Assembly (NCBI GenBank): GCA_037481835.1 | Contig: JBBFKW010000020.1 | Location: 10,985 to 47,529 of the forward strand | Direction of reading: 5' to 3' | DNA from: Desulfosoma sp. | GTDB taxonomy: Bacteria; Desulfobacterota; Syntrophobacteria; Syntrophobacterales; DSM-9756 | Length of the DNA stretch: 36,545 nucleotides | Shown: piece by piece, positions 15,001 to 21,000 of the stretch | How positions within the stretch are numbered: the stretch's first letter is position 1 | Layout: each line of letters starts with the position of its first letter | Made by a program: the position numbers

Positions 15001-18000
15001 TGATTTCCTGCGGCCGGCCCGCTTTCCGAAAAATATCGACGGCTCTGGCCCAATCGAGAAGGGCGTCGTAGGGGGTGAGGTCGAAGACCGGGGCGAGCCG
15101 TTCTTCCAGCGGCATGTGCTGGACCTCTGCGGCCGTTCCCAGGGTTTCGAAAGCGCCGTAAACGATGCGCTCGACCTGTATGTTTTTGAGCACCTTGGCA
15201 TAATTGACGATGACGGTCTGGAGAAGGGGAAGGGACCGAAAGGAATGGGTGATATCTAGAAAGACCTGGTCGCCGGGGCGAAGTTGTTCGATGAGGATCA
15301 TGAAGATGTCCATCATCTCTCTTTCGTTGCGCCCGTCGGGGATGGGCACCATGGTGCACGGCGCCCGAAGGCCCAGGGCATCGATCCGCGAGCACAAACC
15401 CCGCTCGAAGTTTCCGCCGTCAAGCCAGTTTTTTTCCTTCGCCTTCTCGGTGCAGAAGATGAGAACGCGGTCTTCCTCGCCCCACTCCTTGCAAAAGTGC
15501 GCCAAGAGCGCTTCCTGCACGAAGGGGACGGCCTCTTCCGATTTTGTGCCCTCAATGACGTAATGCGATGGATGATATTTGTTCGTGCCCAGGGGACTCA
15601 TGAAAACCCTGCCCATGGAAACCTCCTTCCGCCGTGTGCCGCAGCTCGCCCATGCGGCACACCTTATACCGGGAAGACCATGACACCGTCAAAACCCAAC
15701 CCACCCCACCCGTTCTGATGGGCTTCTACGGCACTGAAGAGCGGTTTTGCAAAAAAGCCTTCTTCGACCTTCAGCCAAAGGCCGGCCAAACCTCATGGTT
15801 TGTATTGTCAATCTTTGCAAATTTTGCTTCTATGCCGAGGTATTCCTTGGGCTTCGGTGCGCGGCGCTCCACACACGGCGGCGGATCCATGACGTGGGAC
15901 CAATGGCTCCATTCGGAATCCTGCAACCAGGTTTTGCTTCGCTCAGCGGCTAAGGTGGTGGATAAGGCTCGGGGATACGGGCTGCCATGCCGCATCCTTT
16001 TCCCTTCGGCCCCCGAAGCTTCCGCGGGGTCCGGCGTATCCGCCGGGTGCTTTGAGGACTTGGCCCATGACTTATGGCTTTTCGTGAATGATCATGCCGT
16101 GAACTGGGAAAAGTCCCGTCCCTTTGACATCCTGCTGGCTCAGGGAACGGATCGTATCGCTGAGCACATCGCCTCCTCCTACACGCGCACCCTCCTGGAT
16201 CGGGTGAGAACTCAAGAAGTCGATCCCCAAAAGGCCTTTTACCGGCGGCTTCGTCAGGTGATCGCCAAAGACCCCCGGTTTCTGTACCGTGCGCAAAAAA
16301 GAGCGACTTTTTACGCCTGCGCCGAGGGAGCACAGCCTGATCCTTCGGCTCCAATGAACGCACCTCCTGCAGACTATGCCCAATGGCCCGATCCCCCGTC
16401 CATCCCCCGTAAGTCGGCCCCTCCCGATGCCCGAACGCTTGGAGACATGGCGCTTTTTTTCTGCCGTGAATATCAAAAACGCATGGGAGGCCCCGTCTGG
16501 GTGCCCGTCCGAGAACTCACTCGATATCTCGCACCGCTGTTAAAGATCCCGAGAGCCGTGCGGCTTGAACCGCTCGAGAGGCCTTCGTCCGAGCACGATG
16601 ACGAACTGGGCAAAGACCCAACGCAGGTGGCTCCGACGCAGGAAACGGCGCTGACACGGATACGGTTGTTCGAGCTGGCTCGGAGCGCCACGGCCTCGTG
16701 GAGCCCCCGGGAGAAGAAGGCCTTTGCCCTCCGCTGGGGCGATGAAGAAAACCTGGAACGGATCGCCCAGGCCCTGGGATACGGCGGGCCCTCAGGCGCC
16801 CGATATTTGCTGGAAGGGCTTCGGCAGCGCCTGCTGGATTTTTGTCTGCTCTGGCCGGGCCTATCCCCGCCCGACCTGGACGAGACCCTTTTTAAGGAGT
16901 TGTTTGAGGCTTTGGTGAGCGTTTGTAAAGAAGAGGGCGAAGGCCGTAGAGAAGGGTGAGAAATCGAAAGAGCCCTCTCAGCCTTTACACTCGAAGCCGC
17001 ACGGGGAAGATCTCACCGACGGCACCTGCGCCACGGGGGCTCCCCGCACGGAAGCGTCACAAGGACGGCACCGGCTCGACGTTCTTTTGGGAAAGGCGGT
17101 AAGGCGTGACAGCGAAGCCGGCACACAAAGGGTCAAGCCATCCAAAGAAAAAACTGGAACAACGCTTAGCCCTGCAAGAAGCGCATCGGGTGCGAGGCTG
17201 CCCACCGCATGATATGCTCTTGCAGGATCCCCCGGACGACGCCCTTTGTCGGCATTTGGACTCGTGCCTCTTTTGCCGGGAGGACCGTGCCGCCCTGGCC
17301 GTTCACACCGGGGATGGGCCTTCTCGTGCGGCGATGGCTCGGAAACCGGACCCGCCGGAAGCCGATGAGGCAGCTTCAGTGGGAGACCTGCGTCGAATAA
17401 GGGAAGACTTTGGAGGGTGGGGACCCCGGGGGCGATACTTCAACCCGCCGTTGGTCTTTCTCGTGGAGGAGGTCAAGGGGCGAAAGGACGTGTTTCGAGC
17501 GGCCCAAGTCCATGACTTTCCGGCTTTGAAAGGCCCTGGAGACACGCCCCTCTTTGCGGAGGTTTTCGCCGAATCATGGAACGTATACCCGGTGGCCCGG
17601 TGGCGCCTGGGGCCGCTGGTGCGCCGCATGGATCAGGCGGTGACGGCCCGGGTTCTCAAAAACGCCCGCCGCCGACCCCACGAAAACAAACAGGCCACAT
17701 GGGCGAAAGGCGTTGAAAGGGATCTTCGCTCCCCCGCCTATTCCGAGACGTCCTTTCTTGAAGCCTTCCGGCGCTTGGAAAAAGAAACGGCCGCCTTTTT
17801 CACATCCTTGGCCCTTTCGGATCTTTCGGAAACCTTCGCCACAAGCCGCCTTCGGCGCGCCTTGATGGAGAAATTCACCGATTTCGGCGCTTTGGAAGAC
17901 GCCTTCGGCTCCGCCGTCATCCTTGAAGACGATCCCTACGAAGACCCCCTCCTGCGCCTCGTGCTTTCATCCTGGATGCCGCCCTCTCTGCCCATGGCCG

Positions 18001-21000
18001 CCGCAGGGCCTGCCCAAGGATTTTTTGTCAAAAAAATCCGATGGGCTCCTTCTCCTGCTTTGGAACCCGTGTGGGCGGAACTGAGAGCCTTTGAAGAAAC
18101 CGAAGACGGATTTCTCGTGGCCGGAAAAATTCATGAGCGTGTTTGCGAGGAGGCGGAAATTCACGCGGTGTGGCGCATTCCCGCCGGCCGGGCCCTGGCG
18201 CGGGAGGCCGTCATCGATCCCAACACGGGCTATTTCAGGCTCCTTTTCCCCGAAGTGACAAAGAAAACCGCCATCTTGGCATTCCTGGAAGTGCTCATCG
18301 GCCGTCCATGATCGAACCCGCCCTGTGGTCGCTAGACGAGCTTATCGTGTGGCACTCCTGGGGGCGCCTCAGGGAACGCCTCCCCCACGTGGCCGATCCT
18401 CGAGGCTTCATGCCGCCCGAAGACCCCGAAGCGGCACGGGATGCATTGGAACGCCTCCAAGCCTGCGTGGATCCCGTATCCTTGGGGCTCGTCCTCGCCT
18501 CATGCCTGGCGGCCGTTCTCACCCGAGGCCAAGGTCCCTCGGAGGCAAAAGATCCCGCCCTCTTTCGGCACCTGGCAAACGCCATGCCGGGCTTTTCGAC
18601 CCGGGACCGGGCACGGCTCCTCCAAGCCCCATGGACCCTTGTCCCCATCTTGGTCGATGCCAGGGGGAAGAGGGACACCGTCTGGTTCGCTGGAGGACTC
18701 CTCGAGGGTGACGAGACGCTGCTTACGCCCTGCTGGTGGCCGTCCGTCGCCGACGGCCAGGCGCAAAACGGAGCCGCCGTGGCCGGCACGCTGGTGCAGG
18801 CCAGAATCCGGCGGGGCCTTGTCATTCTTCCTGTTGTATCTCCCTGGGGCCCTCAATGCGTTTTCGGCCCCTCCCTCGCTCTTCCCCTCTACCTCGCCGC
18901 GGTCGGTCTTGCGCGAGGAAGACGGCCCGAACATCTGGCCGCCACCGGGGCCTTGGAAGAAAGCGGCGCCGTGGGAGCGGTTTCCGCCGTGATGAAAAAG
19001 GCCCGAGCCGCCCGAGTATTGGGCCGGCGCGCTCTGATCTGCCCGGATCAGGGGGTCGAGCTTGAACGAAAAGGCAGCGCGCCGCTCACCCTGCTTCCGG
19101 TGAAGGACCTGGAAGCTGCCGAATATCTTTGGGAAACCTATGAGGATCAAAGCGGCCGAAACGCCTTGGCGGATTTCCAGCGCCTTTCGCACCCCGAAGA
19201 ATTGGCGCATACGCTGCACCTCGTGGATGCCCGGGCCCGAGGCTGGCATGGTTTTCAACCCCGGTATCGGGAGGCCGTGGAAAAGATCGCCCGAGAGCCG
19301 GCACTGACCATGCAAGCCTTGGAACGCCTGGCCAAAATCGTTCGCGATCCCCAGGCGGACCCCGCCTGGATCCAACGCCTCCTGGAACCCTGGGACGCCT
19401 CGTGCTTCCAATCCGTGGCCGAAAAGAACGCACTGGCGGCGTTTCAACTCGCCCAGATCCGTTGGGCCGCGGCGACCCGCCGGGGCGACCCGGGTGAGGC
19501 CGCCCAGTGGGCCCAGTGCTGCGAGGCGCTCCAGGACCGGCTGCTCCAGTATCCGGACGGCATCTACAAGGTTTGCGACTTTCTCAATCGGCGCCTTGTC
19601 AGCGAGCGACAGGCCCTTTATCGGTTCGATCCTTACCTTCCTCAAGACGTTCAAGACATGGTCCGAAGTCTGGAAGAAGAACGCCGCCTTCGAGCCCGTG
19701 ACGGTCGAAAACCCGCAGCCCCGGCCCTGGGAAAACTCTACGGCACCATCGCTCAAAATTACGGCTTTTGCGGCCCCGCGTACCTCGATGAGGTCCGCCG
19801 GGTTGTCTCGGCGGCGCAGGATGCCTTCGGTTTGGGAGAACTTCCCGAGTACCGGGCGGATTGGCGCCGCCAATTCCATTATCGGCTCTATGCCGAGTTG
19901 GACGCCGAGGCCTGGGAGGCGGCCCAATTCACCCTGCAGGCCTATTTGGGGTCTTCCGGGCCGGCTCAAAGGCGCGGAGAGCCTTGGGCCGTGCCGCCGG
20001 AGCGATGGTCTCCCTTTGAGCATGCGGCCATGGCTCGCTTTGGGGCGGAAACGGGCGCCGTCGATCCCGCCTACGACGCCTGGGCCCGGGATCGCCTCAA
20101 AAGGCCCTTTTCCGGACACCCCTGGCCGCTCTGGCTGTGGAACATGGGAAGAATTTTCTCCACGAAAGAAGAGAAAAGATCGGCCTGGTGGAAAAGCGCG
20201 GAACTCTCCCTCATGCTCGGTCCGACGGCCCAACCCATGGCGCTTCTTCCCCTGGCGTGGCTGCACCGAGAGGGACTGGCGACGGCCGCGGAGCTGGAAC
20301 CTCACGTGGAACGCGTTGTAAATCTGCTGACCCGCGGTCCTCTGTGGCGTCCCCACTTTGAAAGTCTCCTCGCCTGCCCCACGGCGATCGGGCTGCTGGA
20401 GGAAACGATCCGCCGCGCCTCCGCTCTTTTTCCTTTCACATATCGGTAAAGGGTTTCGTGCAGCGACAGGTTGACGAACCCCGAACCCATTCTGTATAAG
20501 GCACAAGCCCCAGGACAAGAAAGCTTCGGGAGGAAAAGCGCATGGGCCTTCTTTTGGAGCAGCTTCTCAACGGCGTGGCCATGGGATCCATTTACGCCCT
20601 GGTGACCTTGGGGCTCGCCCTGGTTTACGGCATCTTGCGCATCCTCCATGTGGCCCATGCCGCCGTCTATACCGTCGGGGCTTATCTCGGCTTGCTTTTT
20701 TTCCACACGACGGGAAGCCTGTGGCTCGCGTGCCTCGGGGCCATGGCGGGCTGCGCCGCCTTGGGTGTGGCCATCGAACGGCTGGTCTACTTTCCTCTGC
20801 TCAAATACCCGCCGTACGTGCCGCTCATCGCAAGTATCGCCATTTTGCTGGGCCTTGAGGAAATCTGCCGCCTCATTGCCGGCCCCTATATCCTCACCTT
20901 TCCGGCCGAACTTCCCTTCCCGCCGCTGCATGTCCTCGGGCTGGATATCCCGTCCCCCGTTTCGGCCATCATCGGCATCACCGCAGTGATTTTGCTCTTT

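Follow-up and report, generated by a model that had tools for sequence, protein, structure and literature searches.

A Calp-like unit of sigma-like, MazF-fold and Lon protease genes with a TPR-like superhelix in the place of SAVED beside a type III-A CRISPR operon

What would switch on a Lon-type protease that is encoded with a sigma-like and a MazF-fold protein at a type III CRISPR locus, and in which we found no CARF or SAVED domain? We addressed this question in a 36,545-nt stretch of a Desulfosoma sp. contig (the window), where a type III-A csm operon ends with csx20/csx1 and adjoins the three genes concerned (Table 1). The gene order runs from Cas1, PrimPol, a TPR protein, Cas6, Cas10/Csm1 and Csm2-5 through an uncharacterised 231-aa gene, the reverse-strand pair Csx20 and Csx1, and the three-gene unit to an ABC-transporter operon, with a CRISPR array of ~150 repeats upstream. 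Cas10/Csm1 (TIGR02578, E 9.5e-163) carries both an HD motif and GGDD, as read directly from its translation, and the csx1 gene is divergent from the unit. For the Csx20 family, cA4 ring nuclease activity has been demonstrated, according to the accessible part of the report (bioRxiv 10.1101/2024.09.24.614671). The unit itself comprises three real open reading frames on the forward strand (15889-20449), at the coordinates given in the genome-wide survey's note, and the stop codon of the middle gene, here called X, overlaps the ATG start of the protease gene (ATGA).

Table 1. Coordinates in the window of the three-gene unit, its protein domains and motifs, and the neighbouring type III-A genes
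Feature	Position	Strand	Basis
cas6-csm1(cas10)-csm2-csm3-csm4-csm5 type III-A operon	5578..13085	+	profile matches
Csx20	13836..14327	-	NF040559, E 1e-40
Csx1 (CARF-HEPN)	14252..15616	-	PADLOC CARF_HEPN, E 8.7e-97; TIGR02221, E 2.4e-27
Sigma-like protein, 356 aa (P0001)	15889..16959	+	ORF; region-4 profile matches
Protein X, 401 aa, GTG start (P0002)	17106..18311	+	ORF; AF2 pLDDT 82.2
X residues 30-57, R-x-CPP ... H-x3-C-x2-C motif	17193..17276	+	alignment of 25 X sequences
X residues 88-195, MazF/Kid/CcdB-fold beta-barrel	17367..17690	+	AF2 model and structure search
X residues 295-300, LPMAAA linker, putative cleavage site	17988..18005	+	AF2 and alignment
X residues 305-399, C-terminal beta-sandwich, proposed protease-docking domain	18018..18302	+	AF2/complex model
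Lon-type protease, 713 aa (P0003)	18308..20449	+	AF2 pLDDT 94.1, pTM 0.88
Protease residues 5-27, N-terminal helix, predicted X contact	18320..18388	+	complex model
Protease residues 108-279, Lon proteolytic fold	18629..19144	+	PDB profile and structure search
Protease residues 283-713, all-helical TPR-like superhelix, proposed sensor	19154..20446	+	AF2 and fold search

The unit holds to a Calp-like architecture, in which a Lon Ser-Lys protease is combined with a MazF-fold protein bearing an Ala-rich linker and a ~100-aa domain, and with a sigma-like protein. The protease family spans 366 representative clusters at E ≤1e-3, with full-length members among the matches listed mostly 695-747 aa long. 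Its Lon domain matches 1xhk in a PDB profile search with an E value of 2.3e-16 (1e-12 in the survey's note) and superposes on 1rr9 with a Z score of 13.4 (rmsd 2.9, 165 residues aligned). Both Lon-site residues had been described as invariant, which is true of S189 (codon 18872-18874; 113/113 sequences), while K231 (codon 18998-19000) is near-invariant (112/113). CalpL, previously credited with an E value of only 0.003, is indeed matched but at E 1.5e-6 in the PDB profile search, and its structure 7qda aligns over model residues 10 to 284 (Z 11.7, rmsd 4.3, 213 aligned), spanning both the N-domain and the Lon domain.

Residues 283-707 are helical, as the survey had seen in a model of lower confidence (pLDDT 89.2 against 94.1 here), and the ~430 C-terminal residues do form the TPR-like helical superhelix that had been proposed to stand in place of SAVED. 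The superhelix resembles MalT domain III (Z 13.2, 311 aligned), APPBP2 (13.3), AimR (12.7) and Rap (11.8), values that lie within the range reachable by helical repeats by chance; no Pfam TPR family was found in the protease, and the fold search recognised no nucleotide-binding fold in its C-terminal domain. Near-invariant blocks cover residues 474-490 (nt 19727-19777), residues 604-615 and a C-terminal FPFxYR motif, with G479, Q483, R577 and H604 each present in 112 and F708 in all 113 sequences.

X, a single-copy protein in its own genome that would serve both as anti-sigma factor and as substrate of the protease, has four main parts. Its N-terminal helical domain (helices 13-68) holds a Cys/His motif whose residues R30, C32, P33, H50, C54 and C57 are found in 25/25 sequences, in agreement with the invariance previously noted for the Cys/His residues. 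By its definition we take this to be a zinc-anti-sigma-type motif, with Pfam zf-HC2 detected in only 2/25 members (E 0.014); such a reading of the motif was absent from the survey's note. The barrel that follows has the MazF fold already assigned to it: rows 1-12 of a wide VIA-align search all belong to the MazF/Kid/CcdB fold, the best being 7bye_B (Z 10.0 against 10.2 earlier; rmsd 3.0, 101 aligned) and the next unrelated row falling to Z 4.7, and Foldseek retrieves MazF-mt3 at E 2.1e-3. Its invariant residues are G93, W105, P115, D146 and W158 (25 sequences). Downstream, residues 294-304 lack secondary structure in the AF2 model (pLDDT 82.2, compared with 88.8 before) and leave LPMAAA exposed, a linker in which the earlier reported (L/M)AAA recurs in 19/25 sequences and AA at positions 298-299 in 24/25. 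A further 102-118 residues follow, and both linker and tail length match those of CalpT; the terminal beta-sandwich gave no fold match above Z 4.7. Neither X nor the protease reaches any curated cut-off or has a PADLOC match at E ≤0.01, the survey likewise having reported no NCBIfam or PADLOC hits. Pfam returns a single row for X, DUF2270, at 19.2 bits where the cut-off is 25.

In the sigma-like protein only region 4 is recognisable, as previously remarked, and only below curated cut-offs; no domain could be assigned to its N-terminal two thirds. Its region-4-like helix-turn-helix (approximately residues 272-330) matches FliA at E 8.7e-4 in the PDB profile search, and P0001 scores 17.8 bits against TIGR02937, whose cut-off is 42.9; across the family, nine of 14 members match Pfam Sigma70_r4 (best E 8.5e-5) and nine of 14 match TIGR02937 (best E 3.3e-6). 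With its 356 aa it has double the length of an ECF sigma factor, and no sequence-level link to CalpS was found.

Complex modelling predicts that X and the protease associate, the N-terminal helix of the latter packing on X residues 326-341 and 369-378. The pair scores 0.68 (0.71, 0.68 and 0.67 in separate runs) against 0.00 for the best of three controls, with at least 93% contact agreement between runs and a partner pLDDT of at least 69. Among solved complexes this level was attained by 116 of 157, and among mismatched pairs by 2 of 215; since a CalpL-CalpT10 complex has been solved, the outcome for X and the protease may partly mirror likeness to it. The modelled interface coincides with conserved residues: W15, W18, G19, E23 and R24 of the protease are invariant in its 12 closest relatives and less conserved over 113 sequences.

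The genes travel together, as the survey's note had claimed, X lying directly upstream of the protease in 23/23 related loci identified by HMM and the sigma-like gene being seen in 19, with the contig ending inside X in three of the other four. The word triad nevertheless describes them incompletely: the three genes do form a unit, but a fourth gene (~150 aa), conserved in 13 relatives, is absent from the window, whose copy may therefore be incomplete or differently wired. Two sister units (L024 and L025), both from genomes that lack Cas10, are oriented divergently from csgE-csgF-csgG and from curlin-repeat genes. Neither this curli-adjacent, CRISPR-unlinked clade nor the fourth gene appears in the survey's note. 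As the sister clade adjoins curli genes, the module can work without CRISPR. The near-invariant distal motifs of the protease are confined to the CRISPR-linked clade, and the two loci whose protease lacks them are the two without Cas10, which suggests from conservation that each clade may have its own signal.

Recurrence in type III CRISPR loci, another earlier claim, is borne out as an enrichment. Genes for cas or type III accessory (cA4-pathway) proteins flank 16 of the 23 loci, and of the seven with no cas gene in their flank four are on contigs shorter than 6 kb. Cas10 palm2 is detected in 15/17 genomes with a full-length protease family member versus 34/117 other genomes of the phylum (Fisher p = 4e-6, a value inflated by kinship among genomes), and lies on the same contig as the protease, 3.7-32 kb away, in nine of the 15; the two holders without Cas10 are 93% and 96% complete. 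The loci represent III-A (window, L006, L013, L019, L023), III-B (L016, L026) and III-D (L003), a spread more easily squared with a diffusible signal than with docking to a single kind of effector complex. The CARF partners observed, namely Csx1, CARF-PD-DExK, CARF-RelE and CARF-ADA, all belong to what we take, partly from the literature, to be cA4 families. Ring nucleases also adjoin the unit: in L018, L020 and L023 the gene for Csx20 comes after that for the protease in the same orientation, and L026 has a B116-like ORF.

Taken as a whole, the unit looks like Calp-like proteolytic sigma signalling with a sensor part different from SAVED. We lean, somewhat more than evenly, towards a regulated-proteolysis switch that acts on the sigma-like factor, is organised like CalpL/CalpT/CalpS and is coupled in function to type III signalling of the cA4 type. 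In such a switch, X would use its N-terminal Cys/His domain, its MazF-fold barrel or both to keep the sigma-like protein inactive, while the protease would sit pre-docked, by its first helix, on the C-terminal beta-sandwich of X. A signal received at the superhelix would then turn on the Ser189/Lys231 site and, by analogy with CalpL, protease molecules would probably be made to assemble, the X carried by one being cut by a second. Cleavage would fall in the exposed linker (LP(M/L)AA|A), releasing a C-terminal piece of ~100 residues and an N-terminal fragment with an -AA end. In CalpT, as far as the available account describes, the cut within LAAA leaves an -LAA degron for ClpXP; the genome here encodes ClpX (665 bits), and by extension from CalpT ClpXP would degrade the N-terminal X fragment, freeing the sigma-like protein to redirect transcription. 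The signal is most likely a product of the neighbouring type III system's firing, either cA4 itself or something downstream, whereas direct binding of cA4 by the helical domain seems doubtful to us.

The wiring could also run the other way, with the module serving as an input regulator of CRISPR: the TPR-like domain would sense a peptide, protein or stress ligand unrelated to Cas10 products, and the freed sigma-like protein would switch on the genes next to it, in the window csx1-csx20 together with the cas operon and in the sister clade the curli genes. RRNPP/MalT-type TPR sensors usually recognise peptides or small ligands, and on account of this habit and of the curli clade without Cas10 we retain this reading, although we judge it improbable. 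The window unit is divergent to csx1-csx20 just as L024 and L025 are to the curli genes, in fold the superhelix comes closest to sensor proteins (MalT domain III, AimR, Rap), the protease has neither CARF nor SAVED, and Cas10 is missing from two of the 17 holder genomes. There is also a precedent in Myxococcus, where the available parts of the reports have the DdvS/DdvA pair controlling a type III-B locus (PMC6061681, PMC11506125). Against it, motifs present in the CRISPR-linked clade and lacking in the curli clade suggest clade-specific signals, ring-nuclease genes are tightly adjacent and sometimes follow the protease on its strand, a regulator of cas expression has no obvious need for the company of cA4 effectors in three subtypes, and a shared promoter motif between units was not found in what is a weak test. 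The same curli-linked clade and sensor habits weaken the survey's phrase "CRISPR-controlled proteolytic signalling", of which the Calp-like architecture, the absence of SAVED, the unit and the type III enrichment stand, while control by CRISPR is to be read as a proposal.

Far less probable is a Craspase-like arrangement in which the TPR-like domain docks on Csm/Cmr and binding of target RNA activates the protease with no second messenger. The fusion of TPR-like and protease parts and the sigma output parallel Csx29-Csx30-RpoE, as partially available descriptions present them, and the L026 unit is embedded between a cmr operon and cas6; III-A, III-B and III-D effector complexes all accompany the unit, however, Cas10 is on another contig in six of 15 genomes and up to 32 kb away on the same one, and gene order relative to cas genes varies. 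Least credible of all is that the barrel of X, for all its MazF/Kid/CcdB fold (Z 10.0) and defence-related context, is a latent RNase, inactive in full-length X and freed by cleavage to cause abortive infection with the sigma-like protein secondary, given that MazF active sites feature an Arg, Thr or Ser pair and no such invariant residues occur in the barrel (25 sequences), that no X member matches PemK/MazF at the sequence level (0/25), and that the MazF-like domain of CalpT, in the accessible account, belongs to the fragment that stays on the sigma factor.

Returning to the proteolytic switch tied to type III signalling, its components recall several known systems. AimR, Rap and MalT domain III, which enclose their ligand in a helical superhelix, are the folds that most resemble residues 283-710 of the protease (281-311 aligned) but have no sequence-level relation to it, and we know of no RRNPP/MalT-type member fused to a Lon protease. 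With zinc anti-sigma factors (Pfam zf-HC2), which are cleared by regulated proteolysis, X shares H-x3-C-x2-C with an upstream Cys in an N-terminal helical domain (25/25 sequences) and a gene directly 3' of a sigma-type gene; zf-HC2 itself is nevertheless seen in only 2/25 members (E 0.014), and the MazF fold, linker and beta-sandwich are foreign to classical representatives. Craspase (Cas7-11, Csx29, Csx30, Csx31 and RpoE; type III-E), in the details generally known and in the available parts of its descriptions, is likewise encoded in a type III locus, has a TPR-type module fused to a protease and acts through a cleaved partner and a sigma factor, but its Csx29 protease is a caspase-like CHAT rather than Lon, with an N-terminal TPR that binds a single-protein effector directly and works on Cas7-11 with no second messenger, whereas the Csm complex encoded in the window has several subunits and its Cas10 is cyclase-competent.

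The closest parallel is CalpL-CalpT-CalpS of Sulfurihydrogenibium and Ca. Cloacimonas. There the protease ends in SAVED, which also houses the ring-nuclease function, whereas here it ends in the ~430-residue superhelix and ring-nuclease function falls to a separate neighbour, Csx20; X differs from CalpT in its Cys/His (zinc-anti-sigma-like) domain and helical insert and in having neither DUF2080 (0/25 members) nor a sequence-level match, the sigma-like protein differs from CalpS in its 356-aa length and in showing region 4 alone, and most relatives of the unit add a fourth gene. As far as the accessible accounts of Calp extend, each consists of three genes in a type III locus that has cA4 effectors as well, and both pair a Lon Ser-Lys protease carrying an N-terminal helical domain with a MazF-fold partner, an Ala-rich linker (LAAA in CalpT, LPMAAA in X), a ~100-residue C-terminal domain that docks, by prediction in X, on the N-terminal part of the protease, and a sigma-type output protein, ECF-like in CalpS.

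Three same-strand open reading frames fill positions 15889-20449 of the window and encode a sigma-like protein (P0001), a protein X (P0002) and a Lon-type protease (P0003). Upstream of this triad lie, in order, cas1, a PrimPol-type gene, a gene for a TPR protein, cas6, cas10/csm1 (TIGR02578, E 9.5e-163), csm2-5, a 231-aa gene and then csx20 and csx1, the last two on the minus strand and divergent from the triad, while an ABC-transporter operon, its function read from the translations, forms the downstream end of the locus. A sigma-70 promoter scan of 15500-20700 returned no sites (0.8 expected), terminator-like sites in the same interval numbered 10 (7.4 expected), and the public sequencing runs that contain the stretch are DNA only, with no RNA run among the nine returned. 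The intergenic block between csx1 and the sigma-like gene is kept in the closest relative, locus L001, and holds the perfect palindrome TTTTGCAAAA; this block could serve as an operator or promoter.

Positions of the unit, its protein domains and associated features (nucleotides of the window or residues of the protein, unless another locus or contig is named)
Feature	Position	Strand	Basis or remark
cas1	659-1705	-	
31-nt palindromic unit, four copies	1729-2036		70-106 nt apart
PrimPol-type gene	2170-3861	-	
TPR protein, 462 aa	3899-5287	-	
231-aa gene	13223-13918	-	between csm5 and csx20
csx1/sigma intergenic block	15692-15757		
Sigma-like protein, 356 aa	15889-16959	same as X and protease	ORF reading
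Protein X, 401 aa	17106-18311	same as sigma-like protein and protease	ORF, GTG start
X, helices	13-68		AF2; carries Cys/His motif
X, beta-barrel	94-188		AF2
X, helices, then unstructured stretch	215-287		AF2; stretch with LPMAAA at 295-300
X, beta-sandwich	305-399		AF2
Lon-type protease, 713 aa	18308-20449	same as X	ORF; ATG overlaps X stop
Protease, helical N-terminal part	1-106		AF2
Protease, alpha/beta Lon fold	109-277		AF2
Protease, all-helical domain	283-707		AF2
WYL/WCX-domain protein	34818-36206	+	14 kb downstream of unit
CRISPR array	contig 20 (L027), 1-10800		directly before window
Duplicated adjacent spacers	L027, 1202-1345 and 1778-1917		exact duplicates
Second Cas10, 856-aa frame	own genome (G000), contig 14, 8160-8576	-	
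Gene W, examples	L004, 2041-2505; L026, 10854-11330		
Sister units beside curli genes	L024, 5762-10736; L025, 5410-10356		

Several features accompany the locus. The 462-aa TPR protein matches PADLOC PDLC01172 from end to end (E 1.3e-169) and is grouped with the PrimPol-type gene and cas1, and the same group adjoins the unit in two related loci (L010 and L021). The palindromic units between cas1 and the PrimPol-type gene do not form an ordinary CRISPR array, since two of the stretches between them are 95% identical. In the array preceding the window a 36-nt repeat recurs about 150 times at a spacing of 70-74 nt, and at least two adjacent spacers are exact duplicates. The 231-aa gene product matches an uncharacterised solved protein, TM1382 (3e57, E 5e-15), and a homologue in L007 adjoins a CARF-adenosine-deaminase gene. 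The WYL/WCX-domain protein downstream carries an HTH, and its family is frequently linked to defence regulation. Finally, another contig encodes a second Cas10, so this organism carries two type III systems.

As a single sequence, P0003 has no match in Pfam, NCBIfam or PADLOC. An exhaustive search placed it in a family that at E ≤1e-3 comprises 366 representative clusters, of which 176 also reach ≤1e-30, with full-length relatives among the matches listed measuring mostly 695-747 aa. A profile built from 113 members finds Lon proteolytic domains in the PDB (E 2.3e-16) as well as CalpL, the SAVED-Lon protease of type III CRISPR loci (E 1.5e-6), and the catalytic Ser-Lys dyad is conserved as Ser189 in 113/113 and Lys231 in 112/113 members. 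In the AF2 model (pLDDT 94.1, pTM 0.88) the central domain superposes on E. coli Lon (1rr9) with Z 13.4 and an rmsd of 2.9 over 165 aligned residues, and residues 10..284, covering the N-terminal and Lon domains, match CalpL (7qda) with Z 11.7 and an rmsd of 4.3 over 213 aligned residues, an alignment dominated by the Lon domain.

No SAVED or CARF match was found in the protease with Pfam, NCBIfam or PADLOC; its C-terminal domain is all helical instead. The closest folds are TPR-like superhelices of ligand sensors or degron receptors, among them APPBP2 (Z 13.3), MalT domain III (Z 13.2, 311 aligned), AimR (Z 12.7 and 12.4) and Rap (Z 11.8 and 10.4), TPR superhelices overall scoring Z 10-13, where about 13 can be reached by chance for helical repeats. 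At sequence level P0003 matches no Pfam family, the family profile meets consensus-TPR chains at positions 605-630 only (E 7.7e-5), and an Atlas search with residues 283-713 yielded feature scores of at most 0.80, to be taken as leads only, with structural rows consisting of generic TPR proteins. Residues 474-490, 604-615 and a terminal FPFxYR are nearly invariant (G479, Q483, R577 and H604 in 112/113 members each, F708 in 113/113; the polar residues R521 and N612 are near-invariant too), a pattern that looks like that of a pocket rather than of a scaffold.

Protein X was analysed in an alignment of 25 sequences, nine from a protein search and 16 translated from related loci. R30, C32, P33, H50, C54 and C57 are invariant in all 25 and spell C-x17-H-x3-C-x2-C, that is, H-x3-C-x2-C with an upstream Cys, which we take to be the zinc-anti-sigma motif; X shares with zinc-binding anti-sigma factors such a Cys/His motif in the N-terminal helical domain. 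Pfam zf-HC2 is matched by only 2/25 family members (E 0.014). In the AF2 model (pLDDT 82.2) the barrel adopts the MazF/Kid/CcdB fold, to which rows 1-12 of a wide search belong without exception; the top match has Z 10.0 and an rmsd of 3.0 over 101 residues aligned within X 88..192, and the next unrelated row has Z 4.7. In the linker, AA at 298-299 is present in 24/25 sequences and (L/M)AAA in 19/25, followed by a tail of 102-118 residues. None of the 25 members matches DUF2080 at E ≤0.1, and the X profile, searched against the PDB to E 10, returned no CalpT chain, only kinesin noise at E ≥0.5; a likeness of the beta-sandwich to CalpT10 at the level of fold is conceivable. A DUF2270 match (E 0.00097, below cut-off, 1/25 members) was set aside as chance.

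Co-folding of the full protease with X residues 270-401 gave complex scores of 0.71, 0.68 and 0.67 (median 0.68; best of three controls 0.00), with at least 93% contact agreement between runs and a partner pLDDT of at least 69, a mark reached by 116/157 solved complexes and by 2/215 mismatched pairs; as the CalpL-CalpT10 complex is already solved, this pass may partly reflect likeness to a known structure. The modelled interface sets protease residues 5-27 against X 326-341 and 369-378, and involves residues that are invariant among close relatives (W15, W18, G19, E23 and R24 of the protease; G340, D371, G375, F377 and R378 of X). The prediction supports binding of X by the protease. In it the linker does not touch the active site, an outcome that we count neither for nor against the proposal; a linker held away from the active site would be compatible with CalpL-like cleavage in trans, as reported for CalpL filaments (bioRxiv 10.1101/2024.05.08.593097).

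At 356 aa, the sigma-like protein is roughly double an ECF sigma factor in size. Sigma70_r4 is matched by 9/14 family members (best E 8.5e-5; P0001 at 16.4 bits, cut-off 24.1), TIGR02937 likewise by 9/14 (best E 3.3e-6; P0001 at 17.8 bits, cut-off 42.9, profile positions 85-144 only), and FliA is matched over positions 272-330 (E 8.7e-4), a weak but repeated signal that hints at a region 4. Look-alikes in the Atlas, which we treat as leads only, are clusters of 350-370-aa proteins from several phyla, one of them with Sigma70_r2 in 15% of its members.

A pattern scan with one genome per species recovered 23 loci (L001-L023), all in Thermodesulfobacteriota lineages by their record titles, whose open reading frames were searched with HMMs from the alignments. 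In every one of them (23/23) X immediately precedes the protease, and the sigma-like gene was seen in 19/23, counts to be read with the fact that many of the loci had fed those alignments; independent detections are those of X in L004, L007, L008, L011, L014, L015 and L017, and of the sigma-like protein in L004, L006, L009, L017, L020 and L022. Where the sigma-like gene is missing, the contig stops inside X in three cases (L008, L011 and L014), and in the fourth (L015) about 1 kb of upstream sequence contains no match. A fourth gene, W, whose product of roughly 150 aa carries conserved Cys residues, directly precedes the sigma-like gene in 13 loci, namely 10 of the 23 (L002-L005, L007, L010, L016, L018, L019 and L023) and, in addition to these, L024-L026. 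Its 155 relatives are all unnamed, it has no PDB match and no Pfam family save one DUF7441 match (E 0.0041, 1/11 members), and by hhalign it is unrelated to X (probability 0.09%). Neither the window nor L001, L012 or L021 has W, and no copy occurs anywhere in the own genome (99.4% complete). A search for a shared promoter motif (5-mer, N14-19, 4-mer) in the 300 bp upstream of 17 units was uninformative, its best result of 4/17 equalling the shuffle maximum.

The association with type III CRISPR systems was followed both in the gene neighbourhoods and across genomes. In 16/23 loci the fetched flank contains cas genes or accessory genes of type III systems; they are absent from the flanks of L005, L011, L012, L014, L015, L017 and L022, four of these seven contigs being shorter than 6 kb. 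Filtering left 255 non-triad ORFs in the 23 loci, of which the PADLOC scans covered 148 and a further 29, most of the others belonging to loci whose cas genes had already been found by tblastn. A match spanning most of the family profile is present in 17 of the 401 genomes sampled from the phylum, so that with its 366 clusters the family is not rare there. Cas10 palm2 (E ≤1e-6) occurs in 15 of the 17 holders and was not found in G354 (93% complete) or G276 (96% complete), and in 9 of the 15 Cas10 lies on the protease contig, 3.7-32 kb away. Compared with a background of 38/121 genomes, or 34/117 once four holders are removed, the enrichment has a Fisher p of 4e-6, which overstates it because the genomes are kin.

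By analogy with CalpL and its partners CalpT, the anti-sigma substrate, and CalpS, the sigma factor, we envisage a relay in which the protease, pre-docked on X as in the co-fold model, would be activated by a signal and would cut X in the Ala linker; the -AA-ended fragment could then be cleared by ClpXP, and the sigma-like protein would thereby be released. ClpX is encoded in the own genome. As to the signal, we tentatively suggest, as a possibility about which we remain doubtful, that the helical C-terminal domain is a new type III signal receptor unrelated to CARF and SAVED, responding to cA4, to a ring-nuclease product or to some other molecule that depends on Cas10, and that the ligand assembles the protease for cleavage of X in trans and, in turn, a sigma-driven antiviral transcription programme. 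Nucleotide binding by the helical domain is a hypothetical part of this proposal.

The main competing explanation reverses this wiring, such that the unit would sense some other ligand and drive transcription of the genes next to it. It is suggested by a sister clade in two sampled genomes (G201 and G316), where W-sigma-X-protease units are divergent to csgE-csgF-csgG and curlin-repeat genes, and it has a reported precedent in the DdvS/DdvA pair. The proteases of these units fit the family profile to about position 410 only and do not have the distal conserved blocks. Neither genome has a Cas10 match. The chassis is hence not restricted to CRISPR, and the clade suggests that protease, anti-sigma and sigma factor form a general chassis whose sensors can be exchanged. 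The CRISPR and curli units part ways in the distal half of the helical domain, as would be expected if that half read the signal, a suggestion drawn from two loci. Should the helical domain indeed be a type III signal receptor, the curli clade would represent the same chassis re-tuned to another ligand by a swap of the distal sensor half.

The unit is found beside systems of subtype III-A (the window, L006, L013, L019 and L023), III-B (L016 and L026) and III-D (L003), and its neighbours include the CARF proteins Csx1, CARF-PD-DExK, CARF-RelE/DUF2103 and CARF-ADA. Csx20, reported as a cA4 ring nuclease (bioRxiv 10.1101/2024.09.24.614671), is encoded in the window and in 10/26 other loci, in three of which (L018, L020 and L023) it directly follows the protease in the same orientation, and L026 has a B116-like ORF. 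Three effector subtypes, together with cA4-class effectors and ring nucleases, point to a diffusible cA4-linked signal and not to docking on one complex. A Craspase-like mode of action, in which the protease would dock directly on an effector complex, is less likely. The MazF-fold barrel could also mark X as a latent MazF toxin, which we likewise consider less likely.

Full-text literature searches did not find a Lon-TPR unit without SAVED described, and passage searches in four type III accessory-gene surveys (PMC11229360, PMC6546367, bioRxiv 270033 and PMC12669027) found none either, although the supplementary tables of these surveys may list the family as an unnamed cluster. The family also occurs in the cultured Desulfacinum infernum DSM 9756 (L007), which makes a direct bench test possible. 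Were a Cas10 product the ligand of the helical domain, the range of second-messenger receptors would reach past CARF and SAVED; any other ligand would show how type III loci are wired to other inputs.

Among known systems, the unit would work like CalpL/T/S, yet it differs from it in SAVED and in the relation to CalpT and DUF2080. The window protease shares with CalpL the Lon fold and the Ser-Lys dyad, whereas CalpL has a C-terminal cA4-binding SAVED domain that the window protease does not have; CalpL is reportedly activated by cA4-induced oligomerisation and cleaves in trans. In the Ca. Cloacimonas system (bioRxiv 10.1101/2024.05.08.593097), CalpT combines a MazF-like domain with DUF2080 and is cut within LAAA, at A204/A205, which releases a C-terminal piece of 10.9 kDa and creates an -LAA end that is a proposed ClpXP degron. 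X repeats this layout of MazF-like domain, Ala-rich motif and C-terminal domain of about 10 kDa but has neither a sequence-level relation to CalpT nor a DUF2080 match. Craspase (Csx29) is a CHAT protease partnered with Cas7-11, whereas the window encodes a Lon-type protease and Csm1-5, so that the common ground is a TPR-type module on a protease feeding a sigma factor and nothing more. The CRISPR-controlled protease-to-sigma pathways known so far are two, CalpL/T/S, which responds to cA4 through SAVED, and Craspase, which responds to target RNA through direct docking; the unit would be a third solution, with a sensor of neither known class.
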